DNA of 64,000 nucleotides from a virus. Lineage: Duplodnaviria; Caudoviricetes. The stretch covers positions 1,362 through 65,361 of the IMG/VR virus record IMGVR_UViG_2585427681_000002. One strand, given 5' to 3'. This document shows, in pieces, positions 3,267 through 54,603 of this stretch. The notes beneath the pieces are model-generated. The model was not told where the DNA came from and ran no database searches. It saw only the letters and a list, made by a program, of their open reading frames with translations. How positions within the stretch are numbered: the stretch's first letter is position 1; the number at the start of each line of letters is the position of its first letter. Made by a program: the position numbers and the translations under genes.

Positions 3267-4166
3267 TCAGTGTTCGGCGCCTGGACGGGCGCAGGCGTTC
3301 TCGGCCATCACCCGACATTCGACTTTCGTCGGCCCTTGGTATTTGGCGCAGCAGGGGTGAGTGCAGGCGTTGCAACCATGTGGGTCGTCCGGCGCGGCTG
3401 GTTCTGCGCTGGCATTACGGCGATGCTCGTCGTAGATCCTTTGCGATTCTTCGTCACTCTTCAGGCAACCGCACCGGTATGGGTGGGCGGTGTAGTCGAT
3501 ATGGCACAGGCGATCCGGATAGCCGACTGGCGCGTTCGGCTCTGCGCTGTCGGTCAGCTGGGCGGTTGCTTCAGTGGCATTACGCCCGAGGCGGGCTGCC
3601 CAGTAAGTCGCGGACTTGGTGCCAACCGCAACCTCGCGGCAGATCCAGTCGGACGCTTTTCGGAATTCATCGCCCAACTTGCGCAGGAGCGCACCTTGTT
3701 CGGCCAGTCGAGCGCTCAGGCTGTCGGAAGCGTAGTCGCCCTCAGCGACCATGAGGTCCAAGCGTTTCACTTCGGCACGCAGTTCCCCGGCCTCACCAGG
3801 GGGAGCCATGGGGCCGAGAGCCACAACCGACTCGCCGATAAGCTGTGCGTCTTGCTCGGCCTGAGCCCTGTCCCACCAGATCGCCGAGCCAACGAGCCAG
3901 GCGACTGCATATCCCTGGTTCTGCCCGGCTTGTTTAGCCATGGCCTGCACGATGCCCAGCAGCCGCTCGGGGCCGATCTCGTCGGTATGGCCAAGGCAGA
4001 CGTGTTCGCCGTCCGGCTGTGTGCACTGGCAATCATCGGTGAGCTCTTCCGAGCTACCGACCCAGCCGCAGCGAGTGCATTCGACGGCATAGTAGCTGCC
4101 GCCCAGGGGCGTCTCGCCGATCACGGGCGGGATGCTGGAAGTTGTGGATCGGTTTTCTGTGGGCAT
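3267..4166 (-). CDS. Hypothetical protein with Cys-rich (CxxC) ends and central coiled coil
   Basis: CTRCGW near the N-terminus and CNAC/CAKY near the C-terminus. Confidence 0.75.
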   Translation of the reverse strand: MPTENRSTTSSIPPVIGETPLGGSYYAVECTRCGWVGSSEELTDDCQCTQPDGEHVCLGHTDEIGPERLLGIVQAMAKQAGQNQGYAVAWLVGSAIWWDRAQAEQDAQLIGESVVALGPMAPPGEAGELRAEVKRLDLMVAEGDYASDSLSARLAEQGALLRKLGDEFRKASDWICREVAVGTKSATYWAARLGRNATEATAQLTDSAEPNAPVGYPDRLCHIDYTAHPYRCGCLKSDEESQRIYDEHRRNASAEPAAPDDPHGCNACTHPCCAKYQGPTKVECRVMAENACARPGAEH

Positions 4167-4249
4167 GGGGATATCTCGCGGTCATTGCAAATGCTGAAAA
4201 AATATGGCTCAGTACCATGGACTCACCACAAGCCCCTCGGTGAGTAACC

Positions 4250-4345
4250 ATGTACTTCCTCCAAATCCTCAAAATCTTCCTTCTTGTCGCCAGGCTGGCG
4301 AACGAACTCATCCGCCTGTTCGACCACTTCAGGCCGCTGCCTTGA
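4250..4345 (+). CDS. Putative 31-aa hydrophobic/amphipathic peptide, antisense to the operon
   Basis: MYFLQILKIFLLVARLANELIRLFDHFRPLP; GGTGAG SD; SD and ATG lie in a 16-bp hairpin at 4211-4256. Confidence 0.4.
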   Translation: MYFLQILKIFLLVARLANELIRLFDHFRPLP

Positions 4346-5252
4346 GAGCCTCGACAAACCGCTGGCCCAGCTTCGGAGGCACAGCGTTTCCGGTCATGTG
4401 CATGGTCAGGCGATGGCTTGCTGGGCGCTTTGTGTCCGTCGGGAATGTCTGGGCAGCCAGCGCCTCATCGGCGCTGAGCATGCGCATGCGGCCGCCGTTT
4501 ACCAGAGCCCACCGGTCGAGGGTTGTAATCGTTCCGATCGGGCGATTGATGTCACGCCCAGTGAGCCCGGACCCCTTGCCGTAGTACGGCATAATGAATC
4601 GATCGCCGAACCGCTGGCGGCCATTGCGAACCCTGTCGAGGGTGGCCTGGGCGCGACCAGGCTTCTCGATTTCTGACCAGCGCCCCGCCTCGAAGTCGAG
4701 GAAGCTGCTGGCCGGAACGTGCTGCTCACGCTGGAACTGCAGCATTAGCGGTGCCCGACTGCGCGTGATGACAAGGACCAGTCGAACGCGGTGTTGCGGA
4801 ATCCCGAGGTCGGCGCAGTCAACGACATGCGGGGCGACCTGATACCCCAGTGCCTGTACGGCAGCAAGCCAGGCCGGGTAGAGCGCCCAGGCAATGAACT
4901 CTTCGACGTTCTCGACTAGCCCCGCTTCGGGGCGGTGGAATTCAAGGGCTGATACCACCGCCCAGGCCGTCGAGCGCGATGCGTCGTGCCGCGGGTTGCC
5001 AGATGCCTTGCCGCGCGCTCTCGAATGGCCCTGGCAGCACGGTGAGGCCAGCAGTAAGTCGTGGGCTGGAACCTCTTCCCAGCGCGCTTGGTGTAGGTCC
5101 TGGCATACGTGATGTGTGTCAGGGTGATTGGCTGCATGCCACTTCACGGCCTCTGGCCAGTGGTTTGCTGCCCAGAGGACTTTGACACCGGCATCGCGCG
5201 CGCCGGTGCTCCATCCGCCGAGGCCGGCGAACAGGTCGATTGCTGTGGTCAT
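4329..5252 (-). CDS. C5-cytosine DNA methyltransferase
   Basis: DLFAGLGG (motif I), SPCCQG (motif IV, PC), ENV (motif VI), QHRVR, TGNAV. Confidence 0.95.
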   Translation of the reverse strand: MTTAIDLFAGLGGWSTGARDAGVKVLWAANHWPEAVKWHAANHPDTHHVCQDLHQARWEEVPAHDLLLASPCCQGHSRARGKASGNPRHDASRSTAWAVVSALEFHRPEAGLVENVEEFIAWALYPAWLAAVQALGYQVAPHVVDCADLGIPQHRVRLVLVITRSRAPLMLQFQREQHVPASSFLDFEAGRWSEIEKPGRAQATLDRVRNGRQRFGDRFIMPYYGKGSGLTGRDINRPIGTITTLDRWALVNGGRMRMLSADEALAAQTFPTDTKRPASHRLTMHMTGNAVPPKLGQRFVEALKAAA

Positions 5253-5265
5253 TGGGTGCTCCGAG

Positions 5266-6423
5266 TCAGCGTTTCGGATAGGTCTTGGTGAAGTCGCCGT
5301 TGACGACATGTCCGCGGCGCAGGATGAGGTTTGCCAGTGCGGCGCGGTCCTTCCGGCTGTGGCTGGCTTGGCTTAGGAGGCCAAAGTAGCTGTTGGCCGT
5401 CTCGCGCAGGTTGTCCGCCGGCACCGCTGCCGTTCGCTTCAGCGCCTGAGCAGCTGATCGCTTCCGCGTCGTTCTTCGCCACGGCTTGATCACGTGCCCG
5501 ACGAAGTCGACGCCGCGATCAATCGGCTGCAGGATCGTCTTCGACGGGTTGAGCCTGACTCCCAGGCCCGGCAGGAACTGCTCGATCCGCCAGAGCCACT
5601 CGTTCAACTGCTGCGGCGACTCATGCAGCAGGACGAAGTCGTCGACGTAGCGGATGTAGTGCCTGACCTTCAACTCGTGCTTGCAGAACTGATCCAGGGC
5701 GTCGAGGTAGACGTTCGCGAAGAACTGCGAGGACAGATTGCCGATCGGTAACCCCAGGTGCGCAGGCTGCGTCGTGAGCTGCTTGTGCTGCGGCACGCGA
5801 TTGAATAGATGGCGCGGGCTGCGTATCTCGTAGTCTTCGCGTGGGTCGTGCCACAGCACCTGCAGGGCGAGCTGCAGCCACCATGGTTCGGCGATCCGCT
5901 TCTGCAACTGGGCGGCGAGCACGCGCTTGTCGATCGACACGAAGAAGTTCGCGAGGTCGCACTTGAGGTAGAAGCCCGGTCGCGACCAGTTCTGGGTCTG
6001 GCTTCGAATTTTCGACTCAAGCCGCGTGGCGGCATACAGCGTGCCTCGTCCGGGGATACAAGCGCAGCTGTCCGCTATGAAGCTGCGCTCGATCGCGGGG
6101 CCAATGCGGTTGTAGAGCAGGTGGTGAACGATGCGGTCGCGGAAGTCGGCGGCCCACACCTCTCTGGCCTTTGGCCTCGTGACCACGAAACAGATCGAGC
6201 GACCAGGTCGATAGGTCCCGGCCTGGAGCTCGTCGAATAGGTCGAGGAGATTGGCCTCCATGTCGACTTCGAAGCGGCGGGCACTCGCAGTGTTCCGTTT
6301 GTGTCGCCGGCAGTCGTAGTAGGCAATGACCAGCTCCTCGAATGTGAAGCTCGCAACGGGTGAATCTGCGGACGGGGCGCACGAGACGCTCGTTGTTCTT
6401 GTCGTTGTTGTTGAGCCAGCCAT
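5266..6423 (-). CDS. DGR reverse transcriptase
   Basis: FRDRIVHH, KCDLANFF, GLPIGNLSSQFFAN (SQ motif typical of DGR RTs), YVDD, VDFVGH. The only in-frame ATG before the conserved N-terminus is at 6423, inside TR (TTG at 6429 is an alternative). Confidence 0.96.
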   Translation of the reverse strand: MAGSTTTTRTTSVSCAPSADSPVASFTFEELVIAYYDCRRHKRNTASARRFEVDMEANLLDLFDELQAGTYRPGRSICFVVTRPKAREVWAADFRDRIVHHLLYNRIGPAIERSFIADSCACIPGRGTLYAATRLESKIRSQTQNWSRPGFYLKCDLANFFVSIDKRVLAAQLQKRIAEPWWLQLALQVLWHDPREDYEIRSPRHLFNRVPQHKQLTTQPAHLGLPIGNLSSQFFANVYLDALDQFCKHELKVRHYIRYVDDFVLLHESPQQLNEWLWRIEQFLPGLGVRLNPSKTILQPIDRGVDFVGHVIKPWRRTTRKRSAAQALKRTAAVPADNLRETANSYFGLLSQASHSRKDRAALANLILRRGHVVNGDFTKTYPKR

Positions 6424-6466
6424 TCTCAAAGTCCATGTTGTAGGCGTTGTTGGCTGAGTACTGCGA
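6365..6466 (-). repeat. DGR template repeat (TR), 102 nt
   Basis: Sense reads SQYSANNAYNMDFENGWLNNNDKNNERLVRPVRR; 9 AAY codons, 31 adenines; aligns without gaps to both VRs. Confidence 0.97.
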
Positions 6467-6621
6467 CCTGTCGTGCTATCTACGTCGCCGGGACGATTGC
6501 TCAGCCCGGGAACTGCGCCAGACCTACCGGCATACGTCGGCGGTTTCTGCGGTGCGCATGGCGGTGTCCACAGGACAGCGGCACGACCAGATTCAGCGCT
6601 CAGGCGGGAGGGCCGTAACCC
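6467..6621 (-). ncRNA. Putative structured 5' spacer of the DGR RNA
   Basis: Non-coding gap between avd and TR; 6468-6476 pairs with 6581-6590 (one bulge); small internal hairpins. Confidence 0.5.
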
Positions 6622-6975
6622 TCAAGCAGCGGGCGCGGTTGCGGATTTCTTCCAGGCGTTCGCCTGGCGGCCGACGGAGGCCGTGAGCTTCATTGCAGTG
6701 GCGTGCTGCCCCTTGCTGATGAACCCCCGGGTTGTGAGGGCGCGCAGCAGGTAGTTCAGCATCCACACGCTTTCGAGCAGTTGGTTGAGGTGGGCGAGAC
6801 GATCCCGGCTCATGTTTGCCCGACCGATCAGCACGAGCACCTGAAGGCATTCGTCACGAATCTTCGAGCCAACGACCTGCTTCAGGTCTCTCGGGATGTT
6901 TCGTACCAGGTCAAGTGCAAGCCCGAGCAGTTCTTCAGCAACCTTGTGGATTTCCAAATCCGTGTGCAGCGCCAT
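6622..6975 (-). CDS. avd: DGR accessory variability determinant (Avd-like four-helix bundle)
   Basis: 117 aa, helical, C-terminal SVGRQANAWKK resembles the Avd ExGxxxGGW motif; sits between target and TR; GAGG RBS. Confidence 0.88.
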   Translation of the reverse strand: MALHTDLEIHKVAEELLGLALDLVRNIPRDLKQVVGSKIRDECLQVLVLIGRANMSRDRLAHLNQLLESVWMLNYLLRALTTRGFISKGQHATAMKLTASVGRQANAWKKSATAPAA

Positions 6976-6996
6976 CCTGGCATCCTCGAAAAGCGA

Positions 6997-7012
6997 GGGC
7001 GCCTCTGCGCCC
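6997..7012 (-). promoter_or_regulatory. GC hairpin downstream of VR1 (candidate retrohoming hairpin)
   Basis: GGGCGC-AGAG-GCGCCC, 6-bp stem with 4-nt loop, 33 nt after the end of VR1. Confidence 0.55.
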
Positions 7013-7032
7013 ATGAATGAAGAAGTGAAGTA

Positions 7033-7620
7033 TCAGAAGTATTTTCTGCGGACGGGGCGCACGAGACGCTCGTAGAGCTTGCCGCTGCTGAGGAGCCAGC
7101 CATCCTCAAAGCCCAAGTAGTAGGCGGTGCCGGCTGAGTACTGCGAACTGGTCCAGTGGATGCCCTTGGAGAAAGTCTCCGGAACTGTGCCTTCCAGGAA
7201 CGACGCCTCGCGCCGCGCCATCAGGTAGAAGTCCTTGTGCCCATCCCGCTCGAACTTTGCGCAGAACTGGGCGGCCGGGTAGGTGTTGTCTGTTTCGACC
7301 AGGTCGGCAGTGTTCGTCATGCCGTCGTGCGGGCTCATTGCGCCAGTAAACTCTTCGCCGTAGCTGCCGAACTCCAGCCTCGCCTCGGCGTCGGCGCCGG
7401 TTGGGATGATCAGGTAGTACGGCCTGTCGCCGCCTTGGAACAGCCCGCCATTCACGCCACCCTCACCGGGCCATGGCTCGCCAACGGCGGGAACGCTGTT
7501 TGCCTCGATGGCTGGCGCCGCGGCGATGGCTAGGGTTGCCAGCTTCAGCACTACACCCTTGTCCGGACTGCTGATCGTCAAGTCGCCACTGGTGTAGGTG
7601 GTCAGTTGATTCGCTTGCAT
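7033..7620 (-). CDS. DGR target protein 1 (DUF1566-like, predicted C-type-lectin fold), 195 aa
   Basis: AGGAG RBS before the ATG at 7620; C-terminal WTSSQYSA...RLVRPVRR contains VR1; no signal peptide or TM segment seen. Confidence 0.9.
   Translation of the reverse strand: MQANQLTTYTSGDLTISSPDKGVVLKLATLAIAAAPAIEANSVPAVGEPWPGEGGVNGGLFQGGDRPYYLIIPTGADAEARLEFGSYGEEFTGAMSPHDGMTNTADLVETDNTYPAAQFCAKFERDGHKDFYLMARREASFLEGTVPETFSKGIHWTSSQYSAGTAYYLGFEDGWLLSSGKLYERLVRPVRRKYF
7045..7146 (-). repeat. Variable repeat VR1
   Basis: 15 mismatches to TR over 102 nt, all at TR adenines; encodes SQYSAGTAYYLGFEDGWLLSSGKLYERLVRPVRR. Confidence 0.97.
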
Positions 7621-7741
7621 GGAGAGCTCCTGTGAGCGAGATAAGGGTGCAGGCGGCCGGCGCTTCCCGGCGTGCTTCTGGTCTGATCGCCATCCTGACG
7701 AACCCGGAATCGCCTGCGAGAGAAAGAAATGAAGGGGTGAA

Positions 7742-8302
7742 TTACTGGATAATGCGGCTGCGGACGGGGCGCACGAGACGCTCGACGTCCTTGCCGAAGC
7801 TGAAGAGCCAGCCATACTCAAAGCCCATGTAGTAGGCGCCGTTGGCTGAGTACTGCGTACTCAGGTAGTGCCAACGATCCTCGCGCAGGGTCACCAGCCC
7901 TTCGGCCTTGGCCGCCATCAGCAGCTGCCCTTCCAGGCAAGAAGGGATGTAGGCATCCAGCTCCAGCGCTTTCTTGGCGATCTCGCTGCCGCCCTCGGCC
8001 ATTGCGACGCTATTCGCGTAGCCGTCGCTGTAGCTGCTGGCGCCGGGGATCTCGACGCCATACTCACCCCAGACACCCTCGAATTCGTCGGTGGGAAGGA
8101 TCAGGGCGCGCTCCTGGCCATTGAGCCAGTAGCGCGCAGCGAAGACGCCGCCAAGCAGTGGCTGGCCCAGGGCGGGGAGGTCGGATGCGGCGATGACTTG
8201 CTGATTTGCTTGGGTCATGTGGTGCTCCTTGATGCCGCTTGGCGGCAGGTAGGCATGCAGCTGCCTGCGACGGCACTGCGTTATTTTGTGGATCCGCCTC
8301 AT
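7742..8302 (-). CDS. DGR target protein 2 (DUF1566-like, paralog of target 1); start 8302 (ATGA-coupled) or 8218 (AAGGAG RBS)
   Basis: Shares PxxGxP..GG, GxYGxExxGAxSxxDGxxN and SxQYSA motifs with target 1; C-terminal VR2. Confidence 0.9.
   Translation of the reverse strand: MRRIHKITQCRRRQLHAYLPPSGIKEHHMTQANQQVIAASDLPALGQPLLGGVFAARYWLNGQERALILPTDEFEGVWGEYGVEIPGASSYSDGYANSVAMAEGGSEIAKKALELDAYIPSCLEGQLLMAAKAEGLVTLREDRWHYLSTQYSANGAYYMGFEYGWLFSFGKDVERLVRPVRSRIIQ
7758..7857 (-). repeat. Variable repeat VR2
   Basis: 14 mismatches to TR over 100 nt, all at TR adenines; encodes QYSANGAYYMGFEYGWLFSFGKDVERLVRPVR. Confidence 0.97.
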
Positions 8303-8760
8303 GCCGCAGCTTTCTCCTGGTGCCATGCGCCGACAGCCTCGAAGACCGCAGCGGCCTGAGCCTCGTCCACGGTCACGATGCTGGGAATCGCCAGCCAGGC
8401 CATGCCGATCCGATGGTTCGGATTGCACTCGTCGCTGACCTGTTTGTAGAAGTGCTGGATGAGGTCGGTGAGCTTCTCGGCCAGGTGGACGCCTTCGGGA
8501 CTGAACTCCAGCGACTTCGTGTACTCCTCGCCATCCTGGCCGATGCACAGGCCGGCGATGTAGATCGTCCAGCGGTGCGGGATTTCGCACATAGCGTCGA
8601 CGATCCGGCGGCTGCTGACGTTCTTGCAGTTCCTCCAGTTGACCAGGCCCTGCTTGCCGCTGGGGTCGATGTTGACGACGGCGACGTGGTTGCTGGAGAG
8701 GAGGGCACGGCAGGCACGTTCGATGCGAGCACGGAAGTTGTGAGGCTTGCGCTTGCTCAT
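8299..8760 (-). CDS. Hypothetical phage protein
   Basis: Stop/start overlaps with both neighbours. Confidence 0.8.
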   Translation of the reverse strand: MSKRKPHNFRARIERACRALLSSNHVAVVNIDPSGKQGLVNWRNCKNVSSRRIVDAMCEIPHRWTIYIAGLCIGQDGEEYTKSLEFSPEGVHLAEKLTDLIQHFYKQVSDECNPNHRIGMAWLAIPSIVTVDEAQAAAVFEAVGAWHQEKAAA

Positions 8761-8987
8761 AAGTCGTCCGCCATTTTCCGCAGCCTCGCCCGCTCGGCGG
8801 CGGTAGGACGTTGACGCTTGCGGACCAGGACCGTCTCCGGGTCGATCTTGTCGCTCCGCACCGGGAGCGGGAGAGCAGGGCAGTCACCCAGCTGGATCAT
8901 CTGCCGGCCAGATGCGAAGAAGGCAGCTTTCGCTGCCTCCAGTTGTGCCTGACGCTCAGCGCCGGCGAGGATGTAGTTGTTGGTCAT
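8757..8987 (-). CDS. Hypothetical phage protein (76 aa)
   Basis: AAGG RBS; ATG overlaps the exonuclease stop. Confidence 0.75.
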   Translation of the reverse strand: MTNNYILAGAERQAQLEAAKAAFFASGRQMIQLGDCPALPLPVRSDKIDPETVLVRKRQRPTAAERARLRKMADDL

Positions 8988-9751
8988 GCTGCCTTGCTCC
9001 TCAGCTTCGCCTCGTAGTCGTCGACGAGCAGTTTGAATTCCCATAGGTCCTGTTCCAGCGCCTCGATGTAGTCATCGTCACGCTTGAACTCGCGAAGCCA
9101 GAGCTGGCGGCCCACAGGCTTGAGAAGCGGGCAATACATCCCGATGTGCCACCACTTCCTGCCGGTGATCCACATGCAGCCCTGGACCTGGTCGATCACG
9201 TCGCTGGCATCGTTGTCGATGTGGAAGGCCCGGAGTTTGTCCGGGGCGAGGAAGCATTTGTACTCGCTGCCGCCATCGTCGTTGATGAAGCCGTCAGCGC
9301 TGGCACCGAACGCCCCGTCATCGGTCTTCACCAGTCCGACCTGCGTCACGACCAGGCCTGTCTGGATTTCGTGCTCCATCCTGGCTTCCGGTTCGAGCTC
9401 ATGGCCGCGGCGCATCTGCCAGGTTTCGAAGCCTCCATCCAAAGGCTTGCCACCGATCCGCTCTACCGCCAGCTCGAAGGCGTAGGTGAGGGCGGCGTTG
9501 GATGGCTCGCCAACCTTCTCGCCATCCAGGGCGCGCTGGACAACCTCGGCTTTCGGGGCGGCTTTGTAGCCGGCCAGTTCACGCGCCCTGGCTTCAGTGC
9601 GGCCGGCGAGGAGGGCTTCGACATAGGTCCGCTGCTGGGTGGTCAGGCCGTTCACTTTGGAGCGTGCGGTACTGAACATGCTCGCGGTGATGGTCCCGGC
9701 GCGGCCCTCAAGCCATTCCTGAGACCCTTGTACACAGTTGATGACGATCAT
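8984..9751 (-). CDS. YqaJ/lambda-exonuclease-family recombination nuclease
   Basis: QGSQEWLEGRAGTITAS, RGHELEP, GASADG, SEYKC, QVQGCMW motifs. Confidence 0.92.
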   Translation of the reverse strand: MIVINCVQGSQEWLEGRAGTITASMFSTARSKVNGLTTQQRTYVEALLAGRTEARARELAGYKAAPKAEVVQRALDGEKVGEPSNAALTYAFELAVERIGGKPLDGGFETWQMRRGHELEPEARMEHEIQTGLVVTQVGLVKTDDGAFGASADGFINDDGGSEYKCFLAPDKLRAFHIDNDASDVIDQVQGCMWITGRKWWHIGMYCPLLKPVGRQLWLREFKRDDDYIEALEQDLWEFKLLVDDYEAKLRSKAA

Positions 9752-10506
9752 GCGGCTGCCTCCAGTTGTTTTCCTTTGGCCACCACAGCGGCCTTGACCT
9801 GTTCGTAACCCTGCTTGTCGTTGGCGCTGCGCAGCTCGACAACCGCTACTTTCCAGACTTCCGTCAGGGCCTCCGGGTTCGGGGCGCTGGCAACGCGGTC
9901 GAGGATGTCGGGAACCAGTAGCTGCTGGGCGGCGTCGGTGTTGATCTCCCCGGCGCCTTGGCCGTCGTCATCCCGCATCTCGCTGGTGGTGATGTTGAGC
10001 AAGGCGCACATCACGTACCGTTTGCCGTAGGTCGTGGATGATCCAACCGCCTGGACTGCATTGCGGCCTTTGCCGATATCGACGGGCAGCAGCATCGTTG
10101 TCTGTTCGCGGTGTCCGTCACGGTGCATGAGGATTCCGGTGATGCTGACCCCAGCGCCCGTGTGCTCGACCTTGAAACTGATCGCGAACCCGTGGGTTTG
10201 CATGATCGGCTTGAGCGTGGTGTTGATGTCGTCGAGCGTGGCGTAAGTCTTTTCGGTGTGCTCGTTCAGCGCGCCATGCCCCACCGTAGGGATTTCGCAC
10301 TGCATTTCCGCCATGGCGGCGTTGAACGCGGCCTCTGCGGCCTTGGCCTGCATCCGCTCGTGCATCGCCAGCAGGCGCTCCATTTTCTCGATGTCGCAGG
10401 TTGGGTCGGCTGCCGCGCGGCTGATGACAGCCAGGATGCTGGTGTCAGCTGGTGGCGGAGCGACCGCTGGCCGGCGTTGTTCCGGCAGGATGATGGGGCT
10501 GGTCAT
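9748..10506 (-). CDS. erf: ERF-family single-strand annealing protein
   Basis: YATLDDI and QAVGSSTTYGKRY motifs; adjacent to the exonuclease. Confidence 0.9.
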   Translation of the reverse strand: MTSPIILPEQRRPAVAPPPADTSILAVISRAAADPTCDIEKMERLLAMHERMQAKAAEAAFNAAMAEMQCEIPTVGHGALNEHTEKTYATLDDINTTLKPIMQTHGFAISFKVEHTGAGVSITGILMHRDGHREQTTMLLPVDIGKGRNAVQAVGSSTTYGKRYVMCALLNITTSEMRDDDGQGAGEINTDAAQQLLVPDILDRVASAPNPEALTEVWKVAVVELRSANDKQGYEQVKAAVVAKGKQLEAAA

Positions 10507-10516
10507 GGTGACGGCC

Positions 10517-11617
10517 TCAATACTGGATGGTGACGTTGGGGATTTTGCGCTGAGCGATCAGGGTGACCGCTTGCTTCGCGCAGGCCTCTGGCATGCCGCC
10601 CTCGATGAAGGCTTCCAGGGCGGTGCGATTGATGGCGCGGCGGTGCTCTTCATCGCGCTCACGGGCTTCTTGCTGGCTCAGGATCACTGCGGCAGCGGCA
10701 TCAGCACGACGCCGTTCGTCCTGGCGGGCCTGTTCGGCGGCCTGCTCAGCTCGCCGGGCGGCAGCTACACGTTCTTCCTCGGCTTGACGGAGGGCGGCTT
10801 GACGGTCGATTTCCGCCTGTGCCGCGGCGCGCTCCGCTTGCTCAGCCTGCAGTTTCAGTTCCAGCTCGCGGCGGTCAGCGGCGGCCTTCGCTTCCTGTTC
10901 CCGGCGCTGAACGGCCTCCCGTTCGGCCTGGGCTTTCTGCTCAGCCTCAAGGCGAGCTTTTTCTGCGGCCTCGCGAGCAATACGCTCTTCGCGGTCTTTC
11001 TTCTCGCGGGCTTCAGCCTCGGCGCGCAGGCGGGCCAGTTCTGCCTGCTCGGCTTCGTACTGCTCACGCTTGGCCAGAGCTGAGCGGAGGGCGGTCAGGA
11101 CCTTGTCCTTCTCGCGCGCTGCCTCCGACTCGAATTCCTCCCAGTGCTCGCCGATCTCCATACCTTCTGCTTCTGCGATCAGCCCTTTGATGTGCAGGGA
11201 GCCCAGTTCACTGAGGTCGTCCGCCAGTGACTTCAACCAGGTCAGGCGCTCGTTGTGCTTGTCGATCCTGGCGTCCTCAGCGGCCTGCCACTCGTTCAGC
11301 GGCCGGCGTACCTCTTCTTGCCAGGCATCCAGCGTATCGCGCATCCGCTTGCGTTCGGCGTCGATCTTCTTCGGGATTTCCTTGAGGTCGGCGACCAGTT
11401 CCTTGCCGACGTTGTCCAGCGCCGTCTTGGAACGAGCCACGCTGTAAGCGATCGAGGCGATGGCCTCGCGCCCCTTGCGGGTGCTGACGTCTGGCACGAA
11501 GGCGTCGAGTTCGGCGCGAATCTTTTGAAGGAACGGGTCCAGGCCATTGGCAGCCTGGAATACCTGGAGGGCCGTTTCTTTCGGCGGCACCTCGACGAGT
11601 TGGGTTTGTGCAGACAT
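10517..11617 (-). CDS. Coiled-coil phage protein (E/A/R-rich)
   Basis: GGAG RBS, start MSAQTQLVEV; long heptad region. Confidence 0.85.
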   Translation of the reverse strand: MSAQTQLVEVPPKETALQVFQAANGLDPFLQKIRAELDAFVPDVSTRKGREAIASIAYSVARSKTALDNVGKELVADLKEIPKKIDAERKRMRDTLDAWQEEVRRPLNEWQAAEDARIDKHNERLTWLKSLADDLSELGSLHIKGLIAEAEGMEIGEHWEEFESEAAREKDKVLTALRSALAKREQYEAEQAELARLRAEAEAREKKDREERIAREAAEKARLEAEQKAQAEREAVQRREQEAKAAADRRELELKLQAEQAERAAAQAEIDRQAALRQAEEERVAAARRAEQAAEQARQDERRRADAAAAVILSQQEARERDEEHRRAINRTALEAFIEGGMPEACAKQAVTLIAQRKIPNVTIQY

Positions 11618-11800
11618 TGGAGTGCCTCGCGCCAGGGCGGCGCCTTCAGTTGGGGAAGTGGGGATTGGGGAATGCCAAGTCACGCCCGTGAAGTCAGGCG
11701 GGCAGCCCTGGCTGCCGGTGATATTTGCGCGCTCTTGCCGGCCTACGCTCCACTCAGGGTACGGTTATCGCCGAAGCGCCCGCCGTGCTCGGGTGTGTAT

Positions 11801-11917
11801 TCAGGAAGTGATGTTGCCGGCCAGGGCGCTCAGGAGTAGCCAGCCGGTGCAGAAGGTCAGAGCGATGAATGAGCCGCGCCAGGTGGCGAATCGGCGGGCA
11901 CGCTGGCGGTTGGTCAT
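11801..11917 (-). CDS. 38-aa membrane peptide (MTNRQRARRF...)
   Basis: Read by hand; ATGA overlap; hydrophobic C-terminal half. Confidence 0.6.
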   Translation of the reverse strand: MTNRQRARRFATWRGSFIALTFCTGWLLLSALAGNITS

Positions 11918-12270
11918 GGCGAGGGCCTCAGATGCTTGCGCACAAGCTCGTGCAAAGCCTTGCCGTCACGACTTATGCGTTGGCCGCGCAACTGCCATTT
12001 TCGAGTGCTTGGCCAGCAATCGATGACCTTGTTGCCGGGAAGCTTCAGCACAACGTGGTAGCCGTCATTGTGCTTCGAGTGCTGAACACCGGTATTGCTC
12101 AGCCAAGTTTCGAACCGGGCCATGTTCTCCAGCTTGCGGGCCTTCTTGTCGACCGAATCACCGCCACCGCAGGTGCGGCAGGTCCTGGTGTAGCCAACAT
12201 CCTCGCCTATGTACTCGCAGCACATGGCGCAGTGGCTGCCGTCGGCGATGCTGTCCTCGAAGAAGCTCAT
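11914..12270 (-). CDS. Hypothetical protein with N-terminal CxxC..CxxC
   Basis: CAMCC...CRTCG; GAGG RBS. Confidence 0.75.
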   Translation of the reverse strand: MSFFEDSIADGSHCAMCCEYIGEDVGYTRTCRTCGGGDSVDKKARKLENMARFETWLSNTGVQHSKHNDGYHVVLKLPGNKVIDCWPSTRKWQLRGQRISRDGKALHELVRKHLRPSP

Positions 12271-12488
12271 GCCCTCACCTCATACCCGACTGTCCACTCG
12301 CCGCAGATGCAGGCTCGGCATTTCCAGGCTTGCGGGTTCTCGATGCTGGCCAGTTCGGCCTGCTGAATCGCGGCGGCGAAAGTTGCTCCCTTGAACAGCA
12401 GCAGAGCGCGACCTGCGGGCATGGCATGCGCTTCGGACAATTCTGCTACTTGCTCGTCGATGAGCGACTTCACAACTGGTGTAGTCAT
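12267..12488 (-). CDS. Hypothetical phage protein
   Basis: Overlap-coupled; GGAGG RBS. Confidence 0.75.
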   Translation of the reverse strand: MTTPVVKSLIDEQVAELSEAHAMPAGRALLLFKGATFAAAIQQAELASIENPQAWKCRACICGEWTVGYEVRA

Positions 12489-12676
12489 GCTGCCTCCTGG
12501 CGGGCGCTGACGGTCTTGTTGAGGCGCCCGCAGTGGTGGTCGAATTCGTCGATTGTGATCCGCCCGTCCTTCATCATTTCCACCAGTTGGCGCTGGATGG
12601 TGGCTTCGAACTCAGGCGGCGTCTGGGGATGGCTGAGCGCTTCGAGCTGTTGGTCGATCAGGATATGAGCACTCAT
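12485..12676 (-). CDS. Hypothetical phage protein
   Basis: Overlap-coupled; GGAGG RBS. Confidence 0.7.
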   Translation of the reverse strand: MSAHILIDQQLEALSHPQTPPEFEATIQRQLVEMMKDGRITIDEFDHHCGRLNKTVSARQEAA

Positions 12677-17576: not shown

Positions 17577-18341
17577 TCACGCCGCTTGAAGTGCGTCGTA
17601 TAGGTGCTGATTGTTTCCGTCGTAGACAACAATGGAAGCCGACTCGGCCAGAGCAACCATAGCTTGCTGAGTGGACTGCTCCTCGCCTCGCTCCAGAATG
17701 ATCGTGCGCTTAGTTCTGTCGCGGGAGTTTTTTAGGTCCCCCATTTTCCCGACAGCCCCATAGATGCTTGCCCAGTTCGGTTTCCCGGAGGATCCAGCCG
17801 CGATGGTCTGAATTACCATCTGATCCGGCCTGCCGATGTTGATAACGAAGGGGAAGGTCAGTTGGTGACCGCTGGCCCCGCTGAGCACGAAATCTCGTCG
17901 CAGGCTCTCCTTATACCTTCTTGCCAGGATCGACCCTACCTTGCGTTGAAATTTTGGGACATGGATAACCAGCATATCGTCACACGCATCTCCGATCCGG
18001 GATGCCGCCTCGATAAATCTGGCGATCTGGAAGCCCGCTTCATCCTGGGAGCAAACGGTATGCAGCTCCCCATTCTCGGAAAAGGACATTCCACTTAGCT
18101 TGGCAATCTCACCGAATTTTCTGGAGCGCCTCTGGTCCGGCGCTATGCCGTGCGTCATGGCCGTGAAGAGGATGTCAGAGTTATCAGTGATCCGGACCAG
18201 GCCGCGACCGATATCTTGAACAAACGCACCAATTGCCGCGCCATCAAATGCCAGGGTCAGAGGGGACTGAATGTATGTCAGGCCATCGCTGATATGGCGG
18301 CATTGAAAGCCAAGCTGCCTGCTGATGTCTGCGCAATTCAT
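17577..18341 (-). CDS. DUF1828/DUF1829-like protein
   Basis: IQSPLTLAFDG..IGAFVQ....VRITDN N-terminus; coupled to the upstream gene. Confidence 0.65.
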   Translation of the reverse strand: MNCADISRQLGFQCRHISDGLTYIQSPLTLAFDGAAIGAFVQDIGRGLVRITDNSDILFTAMTHGIAPDQRRSRKFGEIAKLSGMSFSENGELHTVCSQDEAGFQIARFIEAASRIGDACDDMLVIHVPKFQRKVGSILARRYKESLRRDFVLSGASGHQLTFPFVINIGRPDQMVIQTIAAGSSGKPNWASIYGAVGKMGDLKNSRDRTKRTIILERGEEQSTQQAMVALAESASIVVYDGNNQHLYDALQAA

Positions 18342-19178: not shown

Positions 19179-19985
19179 TTACACCGGCTGGCCATTCCAC
19201 ACGTAAAGCACTCGAGCGAGAATGTGGGTATCGTCCACGCGAATCTCCTCGGGGTCGTGATGCTTGTTGTCCGAGATCATCTTGAAGCGATCCCGGCCTT
19301 TCTTCTGCAGGCGCTTCACGTACAGCATTTCGTCGTGGGAGAAGAGGTAGATGCCATCCCCAGTGAATTCACGGATCGTGATGTCGACGAGCAAAGGATC
19401 ACGGTCCTTGATGGTCGGAGCCATCGACTGACCCCATCCGGTGATCATTTTCAGGTGGAAGTGCTCTTTGAACTTCACACCCATCTCGCGCAAATGCGTA
19501 GGGCTGACCCGAATGTCCTGGAGCATCTCGGGATAGTCGTGGGGGATCTGCCCGCCACCCATCGCGGCTCGAACGTCGTAGTGGGCAATCCACACCTCAT
19601 CCCCGACCACGCCTGGACGTGAAAAGTCGGCGGTGATGACGTTCGACTTGGGTTCTTCTGCCGCGGCGAGCAGTCGCTGGCGCGTTTCTTCAGAAATCCC
19701 TTTGCCACTCTTCGCAAGCATCTGCTTCACCAGGTCAGATGCTGAGGCCGGGGCAGAGTCAACCTCTGGCGCCTCATCCGGCATTGAGTCGAACCAGCCG
19801 CGCGGCAAACCCTCGAGCCCCTCTATGCGCCTAGCAACATCATCGCCCAGGTTCTTGGCCGTCTTGTCGGAAAGGATCTGGCTCAAGTGCGCAGCCGACA
19901 TCTCCCAGCGCTCGGCACAGGCCCCTTTTCTCTGGCTGCCAATCAGCTTTACCAGGTTGTGCTTGCGAATCTCGTAGATATCCAT
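19179..19985 (-). CDS. cI: CI-like repressor (HTH plus S24 autopeptidase)
   Basis: N-terminal HTH; AMGGG cleavage-type site; GQSMAP (Ser) and YVKRL (Lys). Confidence 0.93.
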   Translation of the reverse strand: MDIYEIRKHNLVKLIGSQRKGACAERWEMSAAHLSQILSDKTAKNLGDDVARRIEGLEGLPRGWFDSMPDEAPEVDSAPASASDLVKQMLAKSGKGISEETRQRLLAAAEEPKSNVITADFSRPGVVGDEVWIAHYDVRAAMGGGQIPHDYPEMLQDIRVSPTHLREMGVKFKEHFHLKMITGWGQSMAPTIKDRDPLLVDITIREFTGDGIYLFSHDEMLYVKRLQKKGRDRFKMISDNKHHDPEEIRVDDTHILARVLYVWNGQPV

Positions 19986-20004
19986 GCGGCGAAGAATGCC
20001 AGTG

Positions 20005-20071
20005 TTTAGCTGGCTGCTAAATGTGCGCAAAGCTAAATTTTCCCTTGCTTGAGTATTAGCCGTAAGCTAAA
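20005..20071. promoter_or_regulatory. Right operator region (OR-like), three sites
   Basis: TTTAGC-TGGCT-GCTAAA 20005-20021, ATGTGC-GCAAA-GCTAAA 20021-20037, ATTAGC-CGTAA-GCTAAA 20055-20071. Confidence 0.85.
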
Positions 20072-50532: not shown

Positions 50533-53500
50533 ATGGGCGCAGCACTTCAACTCGAAATTGCCGGCGCAAAGGGTGGCGAGAGCAAGCCGAAATCCCCGGT
50601 CGAAGCACCGGATAGCCTTCAGTCCACGAACATCGCCAAGATGTTGATCGCGGTCGGCGAGGGTGAGTTCGAAGGCACCCCGACCGACCGGGACATCTAC
50701 CTGGACAACACTCCCATCGTCGACTCAAGCGGCAACGTCAATTTTCCCGGGGTGAAGTGGGAGTGGCGCCGCGGTTCGGTTGAGCAGGACTACATCCAGG
50801 GCATCCCGGCGATCGAGAGCGAGACGACCACAAACGTCGAGCTTCGCAGCGACAACCCCTTCGTGCGCTCGTTGAGTAATACCCAGCTGTCCGCGGTGCG
50901 CGTGCGGTTCTCTTGGTCGCGCCTTGCCCAGCAGGACAGCAGCGGCAACACCAACGGCTACCGCATCGAGTACGCGATCGATGTGGCCACCGACGGTGGC
51001 TCATACGCCGAAGCTCACCGTGGCGCCGTCGACGGTAAGACCACCAGTGGCTACCAGCGGTCCGTGCGCGTGGATCTGCCGGCAGCGACGTCGGGCTGGA
51101 TGTTCCGCGTCCGCCGGCTCACGCCCAACGCGAACAGCGGCACGATCGCCGACACGATGACTGTCGCCGGCTACACGGAGATCATCGACCAGAAACTCCG
51201 CTACCCGAACACTGCGTTGCTCTACATCGAGTTCGATGCACAGCAGTTCCAGAACATTCCGGCGGTTACTGTGGACTGTCGCGCGCGGCGCTGGCCAGTG
51301 CCCGCGAACTACGATCCAGAGACCAGGACCTACACCGGGATCTGGGATGGCACCTTCAAGCAGGCCTGGACCAACAACCCTGTGTGGGCGACCTACGGCC
51401 TGTGCGTCGAGGACCGATTCGGCCTGGGCAAGCGTATCCAGCCGTGGATGGTCGACAAGTGGGAGATGTACCGCATCGCCCAGTATTGCGACCAACTCGT
51501 ACCCAACGGCGTCGGCGGGATGGAGCCGCGGTACCTGTGCGACATCAACCTGCAGGGCCGGACTGAGGCTTGGACGTTGCTGCGCGACTTGTCCGCCATC
51601 TACCGCGGCATGACCTACTGGGCCCAGGGCCAACTGTTCATGCAGGCCGACATGCCGCGCGCGCAGGACATCGACTACGTGTTCACTCGCGCGAACGTCA
51701 TCGACGGCGACTTCGTCTATGGCGGCGCCGAGCGCACAACGCACTACAGCCGCGCCTTGGTCAGCTACGACAACCCGGCGAACAACTACGATACCGACGT
51801 CATCCCTGTCACCGACCTGGTCCTGCAGCGCCGGTACCGTGACCGGCCGATCGAGATCTCGGCCATCGGGTGCACTCGTGCGAGCGAGGCCCAGCGCCGC
51901 GGGAAGTGGGCGCTGATCAGCAACAACCAAGACCGCACCGTCACCTTCAAGACAGGCCTCGAGGGCGCCAACGTCTTGCCAGGCTACGTCATCCCGGTCG
52001 CTGACGAACTCGTTGCCGGCAGACCGAACGGCGGGCGGATCTCGGCTGCCGCGGGGCGCGTGGTCACACTCGACCGCGATACGCCGATCAAGGCCGGCGA
52101 CCGGTTGATTGTGAACCTGCCGAACGGCACAGCCCAAGGTCGCACCGTCGAATCGGTGGTAGGCAGGGCCGTGACTGTGACCACCGCCTATGCACTACAG
52201 CCAGAGCCTCAGTTGCAATGGGCAATCGACTACGAGGACCTGGCGGTTCAACTGTTCCGAGTACTGAAGCGCACACGCACGACCGAAGGCCAGTTCGAGT
52301 TCACTGCATTGGAATTCAACCCGAGCAAGTTCGCGGCAATCGACACCGGTGCCAAACTCGACGAGCGCCCGATTAGTGTCATTCCCATCACTACCGTGCC
52401 GCCGCCCGCGAGCGTCTCGCTGACTTCGGACTACGCAGTGGATCAGGGCATAGCGGTCAGCACGATGACCGTCAGCTGGCCCGCGGTGGATGGAGCGGTC
52501 GCCTACGACGTCGAGTGGCGCAAGGGCAGCGGCAACTGGATTCGACTGCAGCGCACCGGCGGTACCAGCGTCGATGTCGCGGGGATATACGCCGGCGCCT
52601 ACCTCGTCCGCGTGCGCGCCGTGAGCGCTTTCGACATCACTTCGATCTGGCGCAGCTCAATGCTGACGGAGTTGAAGGGTAAGGAGGGGCTTCCGCCGGC
52701 AGTCACTTCCCTGACGGCCACGCCGCTCATCTTCGGGATTTCACTGAAGTGGGGTATTCCGCCTGGTGCTGAAGACACCCAGCGGACGGAAATCTGGTAC
52801 AGCCAGAGCAACAGCCTTGAGTCGGCAACGAAACTCACCGATCTGGCCTATCCGCAATCCGAGCATGTGATGCAGGGCCTTGGCGCCGGAGTGGCATTTT
52901 TCTTCTGGGCACGCCTGGTGGATAGGACTGGCAACATTGGTCCGTGGTACCCGCTGGAGAGCGGCGTGCTCGGCCAGTCCGGATCTAATGCCGGACCGAT
53001 TCTTGAGTTGATCAGCGGCCAGATCACCGAAAGTGAATTGGGTCAGGAGCTGCTCACGGAGATCGAGAAAATCTCCGGCGACTTCCCCGGGTCTGTCACG
53101 GATCGGATCAACGATGCGAAGCAAGAGCTGGAGGATTTGATCACCGAACTGACCGACCCGCTTGAGTATGTTGCCACCGACGCCTATGTCATGAACGATG
53201 CGGTGCGCAGCGGCCGGCGTTTGTACATGGCAATCACGGATGTACCGGCAGCGGCTGACGGCAGCAATGCGCCGCCCAACCCTGGTTACTGGGTCGACAT
53301 CGGCAGCATCGCAGAAACGGCGAACGGGCTGGCTCAGGCCGTGGCAAAGAACACCACGGACATCGAGAGTATCGACGGCGTCGTTACTGCGACCGCGGAA
53401 ATGCTGCAGGCGGTGCAGTCTGCCTACCGTGATGACGATGGTGAGGGGGCGCTGAGCGATGCCTGGCGCGGCTGGGATACCCTGGCGAAGGTCTCGCAAG

Positions 53501-54603
53501 AGTCGCGCACGCGCACGACACAGAACGATGCTATGGCTCTTCGGGTTACTACCGTCGAAGCGAGCGTTGCTGACAACTCGGGGCGTGTACGCGCACTGGA
53601 ACAAACTGTCGTCACGAACGAGCAGGCGGCAGCGTGGCGCCTGATTGACGTGAGCACGAAGGTCGGTAGCAACACGTCAAGCATCGCAACCCTTGAGAAG
53701 GCTGTCACTGACAACGAGTCATCCACTGCATCGCGATTGCAGACCGTCAACTCCCGAGTAGACACGACGAATTTGGCACTCGACAGCGAGAGGGCCGACC
53801 GTGCTGATGCTGTCGCCGGGGAGCGTGCTGCGCGCGAGGCATCGATCAGTGACGAGGCCGCGACTCGTGCGGATGCTGACCAGGCGCTCGGCACACGTAT
53901 CGGGCACATGGAAGCGTCGTTCACAGTGCCGCAGGGCGAGCGTGATGACGATGGTGAGGGAGAGCTGGCAGGGGCGCTGAAGGGCTGGGAAAACACTGCG
54001 AAGATTGCGGACGAGTCGAGGGTTCGCGCATCGGCAATCGATGTTCAGGCGCGACGCTCAGAGACGCTCGAAGTGTCCTTCAACTCCGCATTGGACAAAA
54101 CCAACGGTGAGGTGCTGAAGACCAATGCGTCGGTGCAGGTTACGAGTCAGGCCGTGGCCGCACTTGATAACAAAGCCAGCACTATGTGGGCGGTCAAGAT
54201 GCAGATCAATGCTCAGGGCCAGTTCGTTGCCGCCGGCATTGGCCTCGGCATCGAGAACGGGCCTGCCGGATTGCAGAGTCAGTTCCTTGTGCAGGCAGAT
54301 CGGTTCGCTGTGGTGAATGGCATTGATGGCGTGCTTGCCTCTCCCTTCGCGGTTCAAGGCGGTCAAGTGTTCATGAACCAGGCATTCATCGCCGACGGCA
54401 CGATCACAAACGCCAAGATCGGCAGCTACATCAGCTCGACGAATTACGTCGCTGGCCAGCTTGGCTGGATTCTTTCGAAGGATGGGACATTCGAAATCAA
54501 TGGTGCCATCGCAGGGCAGGGGCGCTTGCTGATCAACAATCAGCGTCTGCGCATCTTTCATGCGAATGGCAATCTGGCGATCGACTTGGGAATCAGCGTA
54601 TGA
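50533..54603 (+). CDS. Central tail tip / host specificity protein (lambda J-like)
   Basis: GAKGG start, LRYPNTA, FN3-like region, coiled coil, C-terminal FLVQADRFA..FMNQAFI. Confidence 0.95.
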   Translation: MGAALQLEIAGAKGGESKPKSPVEAPDSLQSTNIAKMLIAVGEGEFEGTPTDRDIYLDNTPIVDSSGNVNFPGVKWEWRRGSVEQDYIQGIPAIESETTTNVELRSDNPFVRSLSNTQLSAVRVRFSWSRLAQQDSSGNTNGYRIEYAIDVATDGGSYAEAHRGAVDGKTTSGYQRSVRVDLPAATSGWMFRVRRLTPNANSGTIADTMTVAGYTEIIDQKLRYPNTALLYIEFDAQQFQNIPAVTVDCRARRWPVPANYDPETRTYTGIWDGTFKQAWTNNPVWATYGLCVEDRFGLGKRIQPWMVDKWEMYRIAQYCDQLVPNGVGGMEPRYLCDINLQGRTEAWTLLRDLSAIYRGMTYWAQGQLFMQADMPRAQDIDYVFTRANVIDGDFVYGGAERTTHYSRALVSYDNPANNYDTDVIPVTDLVLQRRYRDRPIEISAIGCTRASEAQRRGKWALISNNQDRTVTFKTGLEGANVLPGYVIPVADELVAGRPNGGRISAAAGRVVTLDRDTPIKAGDRLIVNLPNGTAQGRTVESVVGRAVTVTTAYALQPEPQLQWAIDYEDLAVQLFRVLKRTRTTEGQFEFTALEFNPSKFAAIDTGAKLDERPISVIPITTVPPPASVSLTSDYAVDQGIAVSTMTVSWPAVDGAVAYDVEWRKGSGNWIRLQRTGGTSVDVAGIYAGAYLVRVRAVSAFDITSIWRSSMLTELKGKEGLPPAVTSLTATPLIFGISLKWGIPPGAEDTQRTEIWYSQSNSLESATKLTDLAYPQSEHVMQGLGAGVAFFFWARLVDRTGNIGPWYPLESGVLGQSGSNAGPILELISGQITESELGQELLTEIEKISGDFPGSVTDRINDAKQELEDLITELTDPLEYVATDAYVMNDAVRSGRRLYMAITDVPAAADGSNAPPNPGYWVDIGSIAETANGLAQAVAKNTTDIESIDGVVTATAEMLQAVQSAYRDDDGEGALSDAWRGWDTLAKVSQESRTRTTQNDAMALRVTTVEASVADNSGRVRALEQTVVTNEQAAAWRLIDVSTKVGSNTSSIATLEKAVTDNESSTASRLQTVNSRVDTTNLALDSERADRADAVAGERAAREASISDEAATRADADQALGTRIGHMEASFTVPQGERDDDGEGELAGALKGWENTAKIADESRVRASAIDVQARRSETLEVSFNSALDKTNGEVLKTNASVQVTSQAVAALDNKASTMWAVKMQINAQGQFVAAGIGLGIENGPAGLQSQFLVQADRFAVVNGIDGVLASPFAVQGGQVFMNQAFIADGTITNAKIGSYISSTNYVAGQLGWILSKDGTFEINGAIAGQGRLLINNQRLRIFHANGNLAIDLGISV

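Follow-up and report, generated by a model that had tools for sequence, protein, structure and literature searches.

A prophage diversity-generating retroelement targets two small lectin-fold proteins of a putative early-left operon

We describe a diversity-generating retroelement (DGR) in a 64,000-nucleotide stretch of viral DNA (hereafter the window; Caudoviricetes, positions 1,362 to 65,361 of IMG/VR record IMGVR_UViG_2585427681_000002), whose source is a dormant lambda-like prophage in a Pseudomonas chromosome. The DGR is complete and has exactly two targets, which are small paralogous proteins encoded far from the tail genes, in a block that by its position would be the early-left operon. 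Their scaffold is under purifying selection, and hypervariation is found at the Asn codons that the template repeat supplies. Judged from sequence, a non-virion, intracellular role is the best-supported reading of these proteins; their ligand and their precise role we infer.

A complete retroelement with two target genes

A repeat search of the window returned a 104-nt repeat in three in-register copies, and all genes of the surrounding cassette lie on the minus strand. Alignment of the three copies showed that the first, the template repeat (TR, 6366–6469, minus strand), is adenine-rich at the positions at which the other two, the variable repeats VR2 (7046–7149, minus strand) and VR1 (7758–7861, minus strand), vary. 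VR1 differs from TR at 16/104 positions and VR2 likewise carries 16 mismatches to it; 14/16 of these mismatches in VR1 and 15/16 in VR2 fall at TR adenines (29/32 pooled). VR1 shares 87% identity with VR2, which serves as the reference for the repeat family. Read in the frame of the targets, TR encodes RSQYSANNAYNMDFENGWLNNNDKNNERLVRPVR and contains nine Asn codons (AAC). VR1 corresponds to residues 120–154 of target 1 (158 aa; 7742–8218, minus strand) and VR2 to residues 158–192 of target 2 (195 aa; 7033–7620, minus strand), and the two targets are paralogues with 34% identity.

The gene for the accessory protein bAvd (6622–7014, minus strand) is placed between VR2 and TR; its product matches PF22296 at 1.8e-16 over residues 24–124 of the open reading frame (ORF), and its true start is likely the ATG at 6975. 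Directly 5′ of TR on the transcript, and overlapping the 3′ end of the bAvd gene, lies an RT-15 RNA motif (6464–6638, minus strand), which matches Rfam RF03018 over its full length with 155.8 bits (E 1.8e-38; gathering score 82). The DGR reverse transcriptase (RT; 5266–6429, minus strand) matches RVT_1 at 2.1e-16, and both DGR-type motifs, SQxFxNxYL and YxDD, are present in its translation as SSQFFANVYL and YVDD. The start codon of the RT gene is uncertain because the ORF is open from inside TR, with the conserved part beginning near 6300; the annotated RT genes of phages Cruim01 and Haboob likewise begin within or beside their TR.

A GC-rich hairpin with a 6-bp stem and a 4-nt loop (6997–7012, minus strand), 34 nt after VR2, may serve in target recognition, on the analogy of the BPP-1 DGR. 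Downstream of VR1, only a weaker hairpin could be seen by eye, about 85 nt away. The motif TTCAC[CT][CT]CTTCATT occurs about 19 nt after each VR (7726–7739 and 7014–7027, minus strand), the strong, close hairpin after VR2 only.

With up to three mismatches allowed, the invariant last 26 nt of the repeat (the 3′ end of TR) were found nowhere else, either in the window (0 expected by chance) or in the 6.7-Mb genome, and tblastn with both targets returned no third paralogue and no tail-gene homologue. Because the full list of parts is present and neither a further repeat end nor a further paralogue was found, we conclude that the DGR is real and complete, with exactly two targets. It resembles the BPP-1 DGR (mtd-avd-TR-brt) in its parts list, its adenine-specific mutagenesis, its C-terminal VR within a C-type-lectin fold and, at least for VR2, the GC hairpin that follows the VR. 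Mtd of BPP-1 is a trimeric protein of 381 aa at the tail-fibre tip, and its gene lies with those for the tail. By contrast, one TR here serves two targets, of 158 and 195 aa, both of which are encoded in the early-left block.

Hypervariation at template Asn codons and constraint on the scaffold

Across 36 relatives of target 2, the nine positions that are Asn in TR have an entropy of 2.77 bits, compared to 0.59 elsewhere. The scaffold (codons 1–157) has a median dN/dS of 0.14. In the VR, dN/dS is 1.28 with a low dS, as would be expected if a conserved template overwrites the repeat again and again. These results show purifying selection on the scaffold together with hypervariation at the template Asn codons, and on sequence evidence the DGR, which is intact, is probably active. 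By analogy with BPP-1, the RT and Avd would copy an RNA that contains RT-15 and TR, making errors at adenines, and the cDNA would then replace the last ~104 nt of the two tandem genes. In this way about nine to twelve predicted surface positions would be re-randomised in each small lectin-fold protein.

Fold and predicted location of the targets

Both targets match the C-terminal third of phrog_4245 (target 1 at 3.4e-22), and neither reaches the Pfam DUF1566 profile at E≤0.01. We assign them to DUF1566 because of the matches of their relatives, together with structure: PF07603 (Lcl_C/DUF1566) is matched by 113 of the 142 aligned relatives, with a best value of 2.7e-12 and many matches below the gathering score. 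Target 1, a stand-alone Lcl_C/DUF1566-like lectin-fold protein, consists of a bare lectin domain with an 11-residue N-terminus and has 594 relatives of the same length. An exhaustive HMMER search gave 1092 cluster representatives for the target 2 family, nearly all of 150–270 aa; among the 150 best of them, 138 stand alone and fall within this size range. A word-index search for longer, fused relatives (343–2000 aa) returned none at 1e-5, which is weak evidence.

Structure was modelled for target 2. The AlphaFold2 model (142-sequence alignment; pLDDT 94.6, pTM 0.80) comprises a β-hairpin (residues 7–18) and a helix (21–33), a linker (34–45) and a lectin-fold domain (46–195). Its best match by VIA-align is the C-terminal domain of Legionella Lcl (8q4e_A; Z 13.3, rmsd 2.8 Å over 120/131 residues), followed by the C-terminal domains of the Bacteroides fimbrial/pilus protein 4eps (Z 12.7) and of Bdellovibrio Bd2740 (8oks; Z 10.3). 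Generic C-type lectins (Z 6–8) and TvpA (6.2) score below the Lcl match. Foldseek against the PDB gave weak E-values only, the best being 1.3e-3. On the strength of this model we are confident that target 2 adopts the fold of the Lcl C-terminal domain. The N-terminal module (residues 1–33) is less readily placed: ten orthologous fragments had no Pfam match at E≤10, there was no usable ESM Atlas match, and no DNA-binding family was matched.

Inspection of the sequences, in place of a dedicated predictor, revealed no signal-peptide-like N-terminus and no lipobox in either target, and neither contains a tail-fibre domain. Each target has one Cys, and over stretches of 19 residues the hydropathy peaks at 1.27 in target 1 and at 1.65 in target 2. 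A membrane anchor in helix 22–40 of target 2 was considered and set aside; the hydrophobic run spans about 16 residues and is broken by a Lys, and we do not read the helix as an anchor because the equivalent helix of relatives is amphipathic. The lack of export signals suggests that the targets are cytoplasmic. A cytoplasmic location is also implied by the relative P0319 (L084:94-804), in which an Arc-like ribbon-helix-helix domain (PF03869, 1.5e-8) is fused to an Lcl_C-like domain with a VR-like C-terminus, a fusion of which this is the sole example, from one 2-kb contig.

A first-pass annotation of the window had described the targets as stand-alone, DUF1566-like paralogues with neither signal peptide nor virion anchor, for which a C-type-lectin fold was to be expected. 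The lack of recognisable export and anchor features and, for target 2, the modelled fold are borne out, as are the paralogy and the small size, whereas the DUF1566 label finds no direct Pfam match.

Position within the prophage

The cassette lies in a minus-strand block of ~20 kb that runs from the cI/LexA-like S24 repressor at its head (19179–20030, minus strand; PF00717, 7.5e-18) to a tyrosine integrase just left of the window, adjoining a host ABC-F gene. Genes in this block overlap or are closely spaced, and encode a ParB-HTH protein, a 388-aa phrog_1376 protein, ERF, YqaJ, two small unknowns, the DGR cassette and two methyltransferases. Upstream of the cassette are the YqaJ-type exonuclease and ERF annealing protein genes (8984–10506, minus strand; PF09588, 4.9e-13, and PF04404, 1.8e-20). 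Downstream are the C5 cytosine DNA methyltransferase gene (4329–5309, minus strand; PF00145, 8.1e-37), which overlaps the end of the RT gene, and the gene for an N6/N4 methyltransferase. J is encoded at 50533–54603 on the plus strand, 42 kb from the targets, which lie on the opposite strand. The cassette between the ERF/exonuclease and methyltransferase genes, its distance of more than 40 kb from J and the lack of a TR match in the tail genes had all been reported in the first-pass annotation, and each was confirmed.

A simple scan of 4000–12500 detected no sigma-70-like promoter, and the sole minus-strand terminator-like site in that interval is the GC hairpin after VR2. The target pair lies 11 kb downstream of cI, and the GC content of the cassette (0.62) equals that of its flanks. 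By position, and by analogy with lambda, the minus-strand block would be the early-left operon; judged by position only, the targets would be expressed early.

Conservation of the cassette and its position

The RT belongs to a tight clade; it is 66–79% identical to the RTs of Cruim01, Haboob, Magia and vB_Sb_QDWS, compared to less than 37% for all other phage DGR RTs in our collection. The clade includes RTs of Pseudomonas phages (Cruim01, SC_8_H2H8_2017, Haboob, phPA-G and LPPA56), Burkholderia phages (Magia, vB_E192a and vB_PL1) and a Shewanella phage (vB_Sb_QDWS). It is a clade found in temperate phages of Proteobacteria. Every record that we examined has the same cassette order, namely two small lectin-fold genes, Avd, TR and RT. 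In all isolated-phage records examined for layout (Haboob, Cruim01, vB_E192a, Magia, vB_Sb_QDWS and LPPA56), the cassette stands between repressor/recombination genes and the integrase, and a distant metagenomic contig (L012) has the same cassette layout. The RT-15 region is kept with 68–77% nucleotide identity in those six phages and in L012. An RT-15 feature is already annotated in Cruim01; the DGRs of Cruim01, Haboob, phPA-G, LPPA56, SC_8_H2H8_2017, vB_E192a, vB_PL1 and vB_Sb_QDWS are unannotated, and that of Magia is annotated (PMC7883833).

For a broader comparison we used 67 IMG/VR loci that encode relatives of target 2 with 36–84% identity. A target 1 homologue lies directly upstream in most of these loci, Avd follows in 52 and RT in 47. 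Early markers are on the same strand and in consistent order in 67/67 loci (YqaJ in 28, ERF in 16, the 388-aa protein in 19 and cI in 19), with methyltransferases (11) and integrase (6) as further same-strand early markers. Homologues of this prophage's terminase, portal, capsid, tape-measure, J and fibre-like proteins were present within 10 kb at 0/67 loci. The early-operon position of the gene pair is kept in these 67 viral contigs and in about ten isolated phages, with or without a DGR.

DGR-less phages illustrate this conservation, so that the early position seen by the first-pass annotation in this window holds in DGR carriers and non-carriers alike. In Medea1 (L006:7992-9300), two DUF1566 genes stand between YqaJ/SSB genes and two methyltransferases; in PMG1/D3, the homologue is the first gene past the cI terminator and a predicted promoter; and in PAN70, the homologue lies between cI and int. 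VR-like 3′ ends that are 74–85% identical to the TR of this window occur in Medea1 and at eight contig loci (L020, L030, L038, L040, L050, L053, L075 and L076). RT-15/TR, Avd and RT were undetected in these DGR-less loci, a few of which end about 3–6 kb from the pair. L030 keeps the target 2 homologue only, the other DGR-less loci keep both targets, and the one DGR-less target copy that was checked (in L020) is intact. This pattern points to recurrent loss of the DGR, which would leave "frozen" targets behind.

In some relatives a third paralogue of this family is encoded 2.5–7.6 kb upstream, on the repressor side; these are Cruim01 (L009:13579-14178) and L017, L020, L021, L025, L035, L042, L044, L058, L064 and L066-L070. 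Because the third paralogue of L020 and Cruim01 ends in TR-like sequence, some relatives have three targets, compared to two in this window.

Public contigs about 90% identical to this prophage share the interval from ~5146 to 8228; their divergence sets in exactly 10 nt before the start of target 1, which suggests that the cassette travels as a unit that brings along no promoter upstream. Of 43 mostly complete records with the family, 22 have a J-like protein, two have a contractile sheath and about half are without a J homologue; Magia has been described as a myophage (PMC7883833). The cassette family is thus found with at least three tail architectures, and since it accompanies such varied tails, docking on one particular tail is not expected. 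No public sequencing run holds more than 14% of the sampled words. Contigs from a food metatranscriptome span the RT, Avd and target 2 region; as contigs, they cannot show transcription or its timing.

Interpretation and alternative explanations

We favour a non-virion role for the targets because of their position, the conservation of that position, their lack of export or anchor features, the independence of tail type and the existence of an Arc-fused relative. The targets would then be ordinary early-left genes of the repressor-to-integrase region, co-transcribed with the recombination and methyltransferase genes, and would not take part in receptor binding by the virion; most likely they are soluble binders inside the infected or induced cell. 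Their likeliest job would be to bind and neutralise variable proteins of the host or of rival mobile elements, in counter-defence or host takeover, and the DGR would re-aim the binder when the phage lineage meets a new host background. We rank counter-defence or takeover first because the genes lie in a lytic early block beside methyltransferases, with no sign here of expression in the lysogen; an anti-defence function as such we infer. The full explanation, namely an active DGR that diversifies two early, non-virion intracellular binders with counter-defence or takeover as their likeliest use, is a tentative one, to which we give somewhat less than an even chance.

Several observations weigh against this explanation. 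Anti-defence or host-takeover activity, as put forward in the first-pass annotation, found no support: in PADLOC neither target and none of the neighbouring unknowns had a match, save the RT and a DUF1828 protein, and PADLOC and Pfam alike give no functional hint for the targets. Anti-defence is also one of several possible intracellular roles. The closest characterised domains (Lcl, 4eps, Bd2740 and TvpA) are all extracellular adhesin tips, and the same domain caps tail-fibre-like proteins in other phages and builds a 17-repeat giant surface-type protein. Furthermore, the N-terminal module of target 2, which is conserved, could serve for docking, helix 22–40 of this protein is borderline hydrophobic (KD 1.65), and the search for structural neighbours at the 67 loci used this prophage's own structural proteins only.

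The targets might instead be accessory receptor-binding or adhesin subunits that are encoded away from the tail and join the virion in trans, or act after lysis, so that the DGR would serve as a tropism switch; the N-terminal hairpin-helix of target 2 is, for example, a possible route into the virion. To our knowledge, all phage DGR targets studied by experiment are receptor-binding proteins. The adhesin tips that are the nearest solved folds fit this proposal, as do relatives of the domain found at the C-terminal ends of phage proteins of the S74, collagen and tail-fibre types; Wu et al. 2018 (PMC5758913) mention phage DGR targets that do not neighbour the RT, and the authors of the Magia genome proposed a change of host range (PMC7883833). 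However, the genes lie 42 kb from J on the strand opposite the late genes, none of the 67 related loci has homologues of this prophage's structural proteins within 10 kb, and target 1 is a bare lectin domain with an N-terminus of 11 residues. The family also occurs with tails of the J type, with sheathed tails and with others, which makes a fixed docking partner unlikely. Overall we consider a receptor-binding role unlikely, if far from negligible. A protective role for the prophage, in which binders made in the lysogen would recognise superinfecting phages or other invaders as diversified exclusion or sensor proteins, seems improbable to us. It would liken the targets to the DGR-diversified antigen sensors of multicellular bacteria, and cellular DGR targets fused to conflict-system domains have been published (PMC10907252). 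The homologue in PMG1/D3 adjoins cI and follows a predicted promoter of its own, a third paralogue near cI occurs in several relatives, and early-left regions often hold defence genes expressed in the lysogen, of which the DUF1828 gene near cI, with its match to PDC-M24B, may be an instance here. The pair in this prophage, by contrast, lies 11 kb downstream of cI in a block without a predicted promoter, and its products have no effector domain and no PADLOC match.

A regulatory or sensing role appears very improbable. Here the lectin domain would bind a small molecule or host factor and modulate a lysis-lysogeny or recombination decision, as the joining of an Arc-like domain to a lectin domain with a VR-like C-terminus in P0319 might suggest. 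That single 2-kb contig is the sole example of such a fusion, however, no match to a DNA-binding family was obtained for the N-terminal module of target 2, and hypervariation suits a variable macromolecular ligand better than a fixed metabolite.

Returning to the explanation by early intracellular binders, it can be extended to the whole clade, whose DGRs would be dedicated to one to three small, cytoplasmic, early-left lectin-fold binders that form an antibody-like counter-defence set, so that the specificity being diversified would be that of counter-defence and not of adsorption. This wider proposal is possible, and at present we regard it as doubtful.

Relation to known systems

The layout described here is common and partly published. 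The first-pass annotation, in setting it apart from characterised phage DGRs such as that of BPP-1, overstated its novelty, as precedents are found in Wu et al. 2018 (PMC5758913), Benler et al. 2021 (PMC8008677) and the announcement of Magia (PMC7883833). The Magia DGR (MT701587; PMC7883833) and those of the other phages of the clade share the RT clade, the gene order and the position between repressor/recombination genes and integrase with the DGR of this window; they differ in that Magia-type targets are shorter (120 and 154 aa) and the flanking early genes are not the same. The Magia authors noted DGR targets in "relatively short reading frames" and proposed adaptation or host-range change; their announcement does not discuss the early-operon position (PMC7883833). 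Papers on phPA-G, Burkholderia prophages, Cruim01 and Medea1 make no mention of a DGR or of virion proteomics.

In Quimbyvirus, a second DGR target is encoded at a distance from the structural module and on the other strand, amid methyltransferases and a nuclease; Benler et al. 2021 (PMC8008677) read it as a non-structural protein of phage-host conflict. The targets described here are similarly far from structural genes, on the opposite strand and next to methyltransferase and nuclease genes, a likeness of position. Quimbyvirus ("Quimbyviridae") differs in host phylum and RT clade, and its DGR acts in addition on a protein of the tail module; here both targets are, by position, non-structural and no structural target was found. 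Roux et al. 2021 also mention non-structural viral DGR targets.

According to Wu et al. 2018, about half of category d DGR targets are short and consist of a DUF1566 domain alone (PMC5758913). The targets resemble category d targets of the Lcl/LdtA type, in that target 2 has its best structural match in Lcl and relatives match PF07603. Lcl of Legionella pneumophila (8q4e) and LdtA are exported surface proteins, LdtA being a lipoprotein, and in this they differ from the targets, which have neither signal peptide nor lipobox. DGR-diversified lectin domains thought to act inside the cell are described as conflict sensors of multicellular bacteria and cyanobacteria (PMC10907252, PMC7517822). Those sensors are cellular proteins fused to NTPase, kinase or other effector domains, whereas the proteins described here are phage-encoded and lack an effector. 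We found no paper stating that this RT clade targets early-operon proteins only, and none that names the target family as a regular member of the early-left region, whether or not a DGR is present.

In the textbook view, phage DGRs serve to switch tropism by diversifying tail fibres. Because the only targets here, as in at least 67 related viral contigs and about ten cultured phages, are signal-less lectin-fold proteins of the putative early operon, the trait whose evolution is accelerated in many Pseudomonas and Burkholderia phages is probably not adsorption. Carriers such as Haboob, phPA-G and LPPA56 (P. aeruginosa) and Cruim01 (P. syringae) can be cultured, and since these hosts are tractable, what non-structural phage DGR targets bind is directly testable. 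A soluble binder scaffold of 16–20 kDa that is naturally re-randomised would also interest protein engineers.

Other observations

The records of vB_Sb_QDWS (OK094664.1) and "Hujiaoplasma phage zrk29-1" (OP650936.1) are both 47,902 bp long and gave identical RT match statistics; they look like a single genome submitted twice, with very different hosts named. A DUF1828 protein encoded immediately downstream of the cI-like repressor, in a rexAB-like position (17577–18341, minus strand), matches PDC-M24B, a candidate defence family of PADLOC (2.1e-8). Past the tail genes, where the window ends on the right, lies a gene for an acyltransferase_3 and SGNH protein of the O-acetyltransferase type (62009–64000, minus strand), which is either a lysogenic-conversion gene or a host gene.

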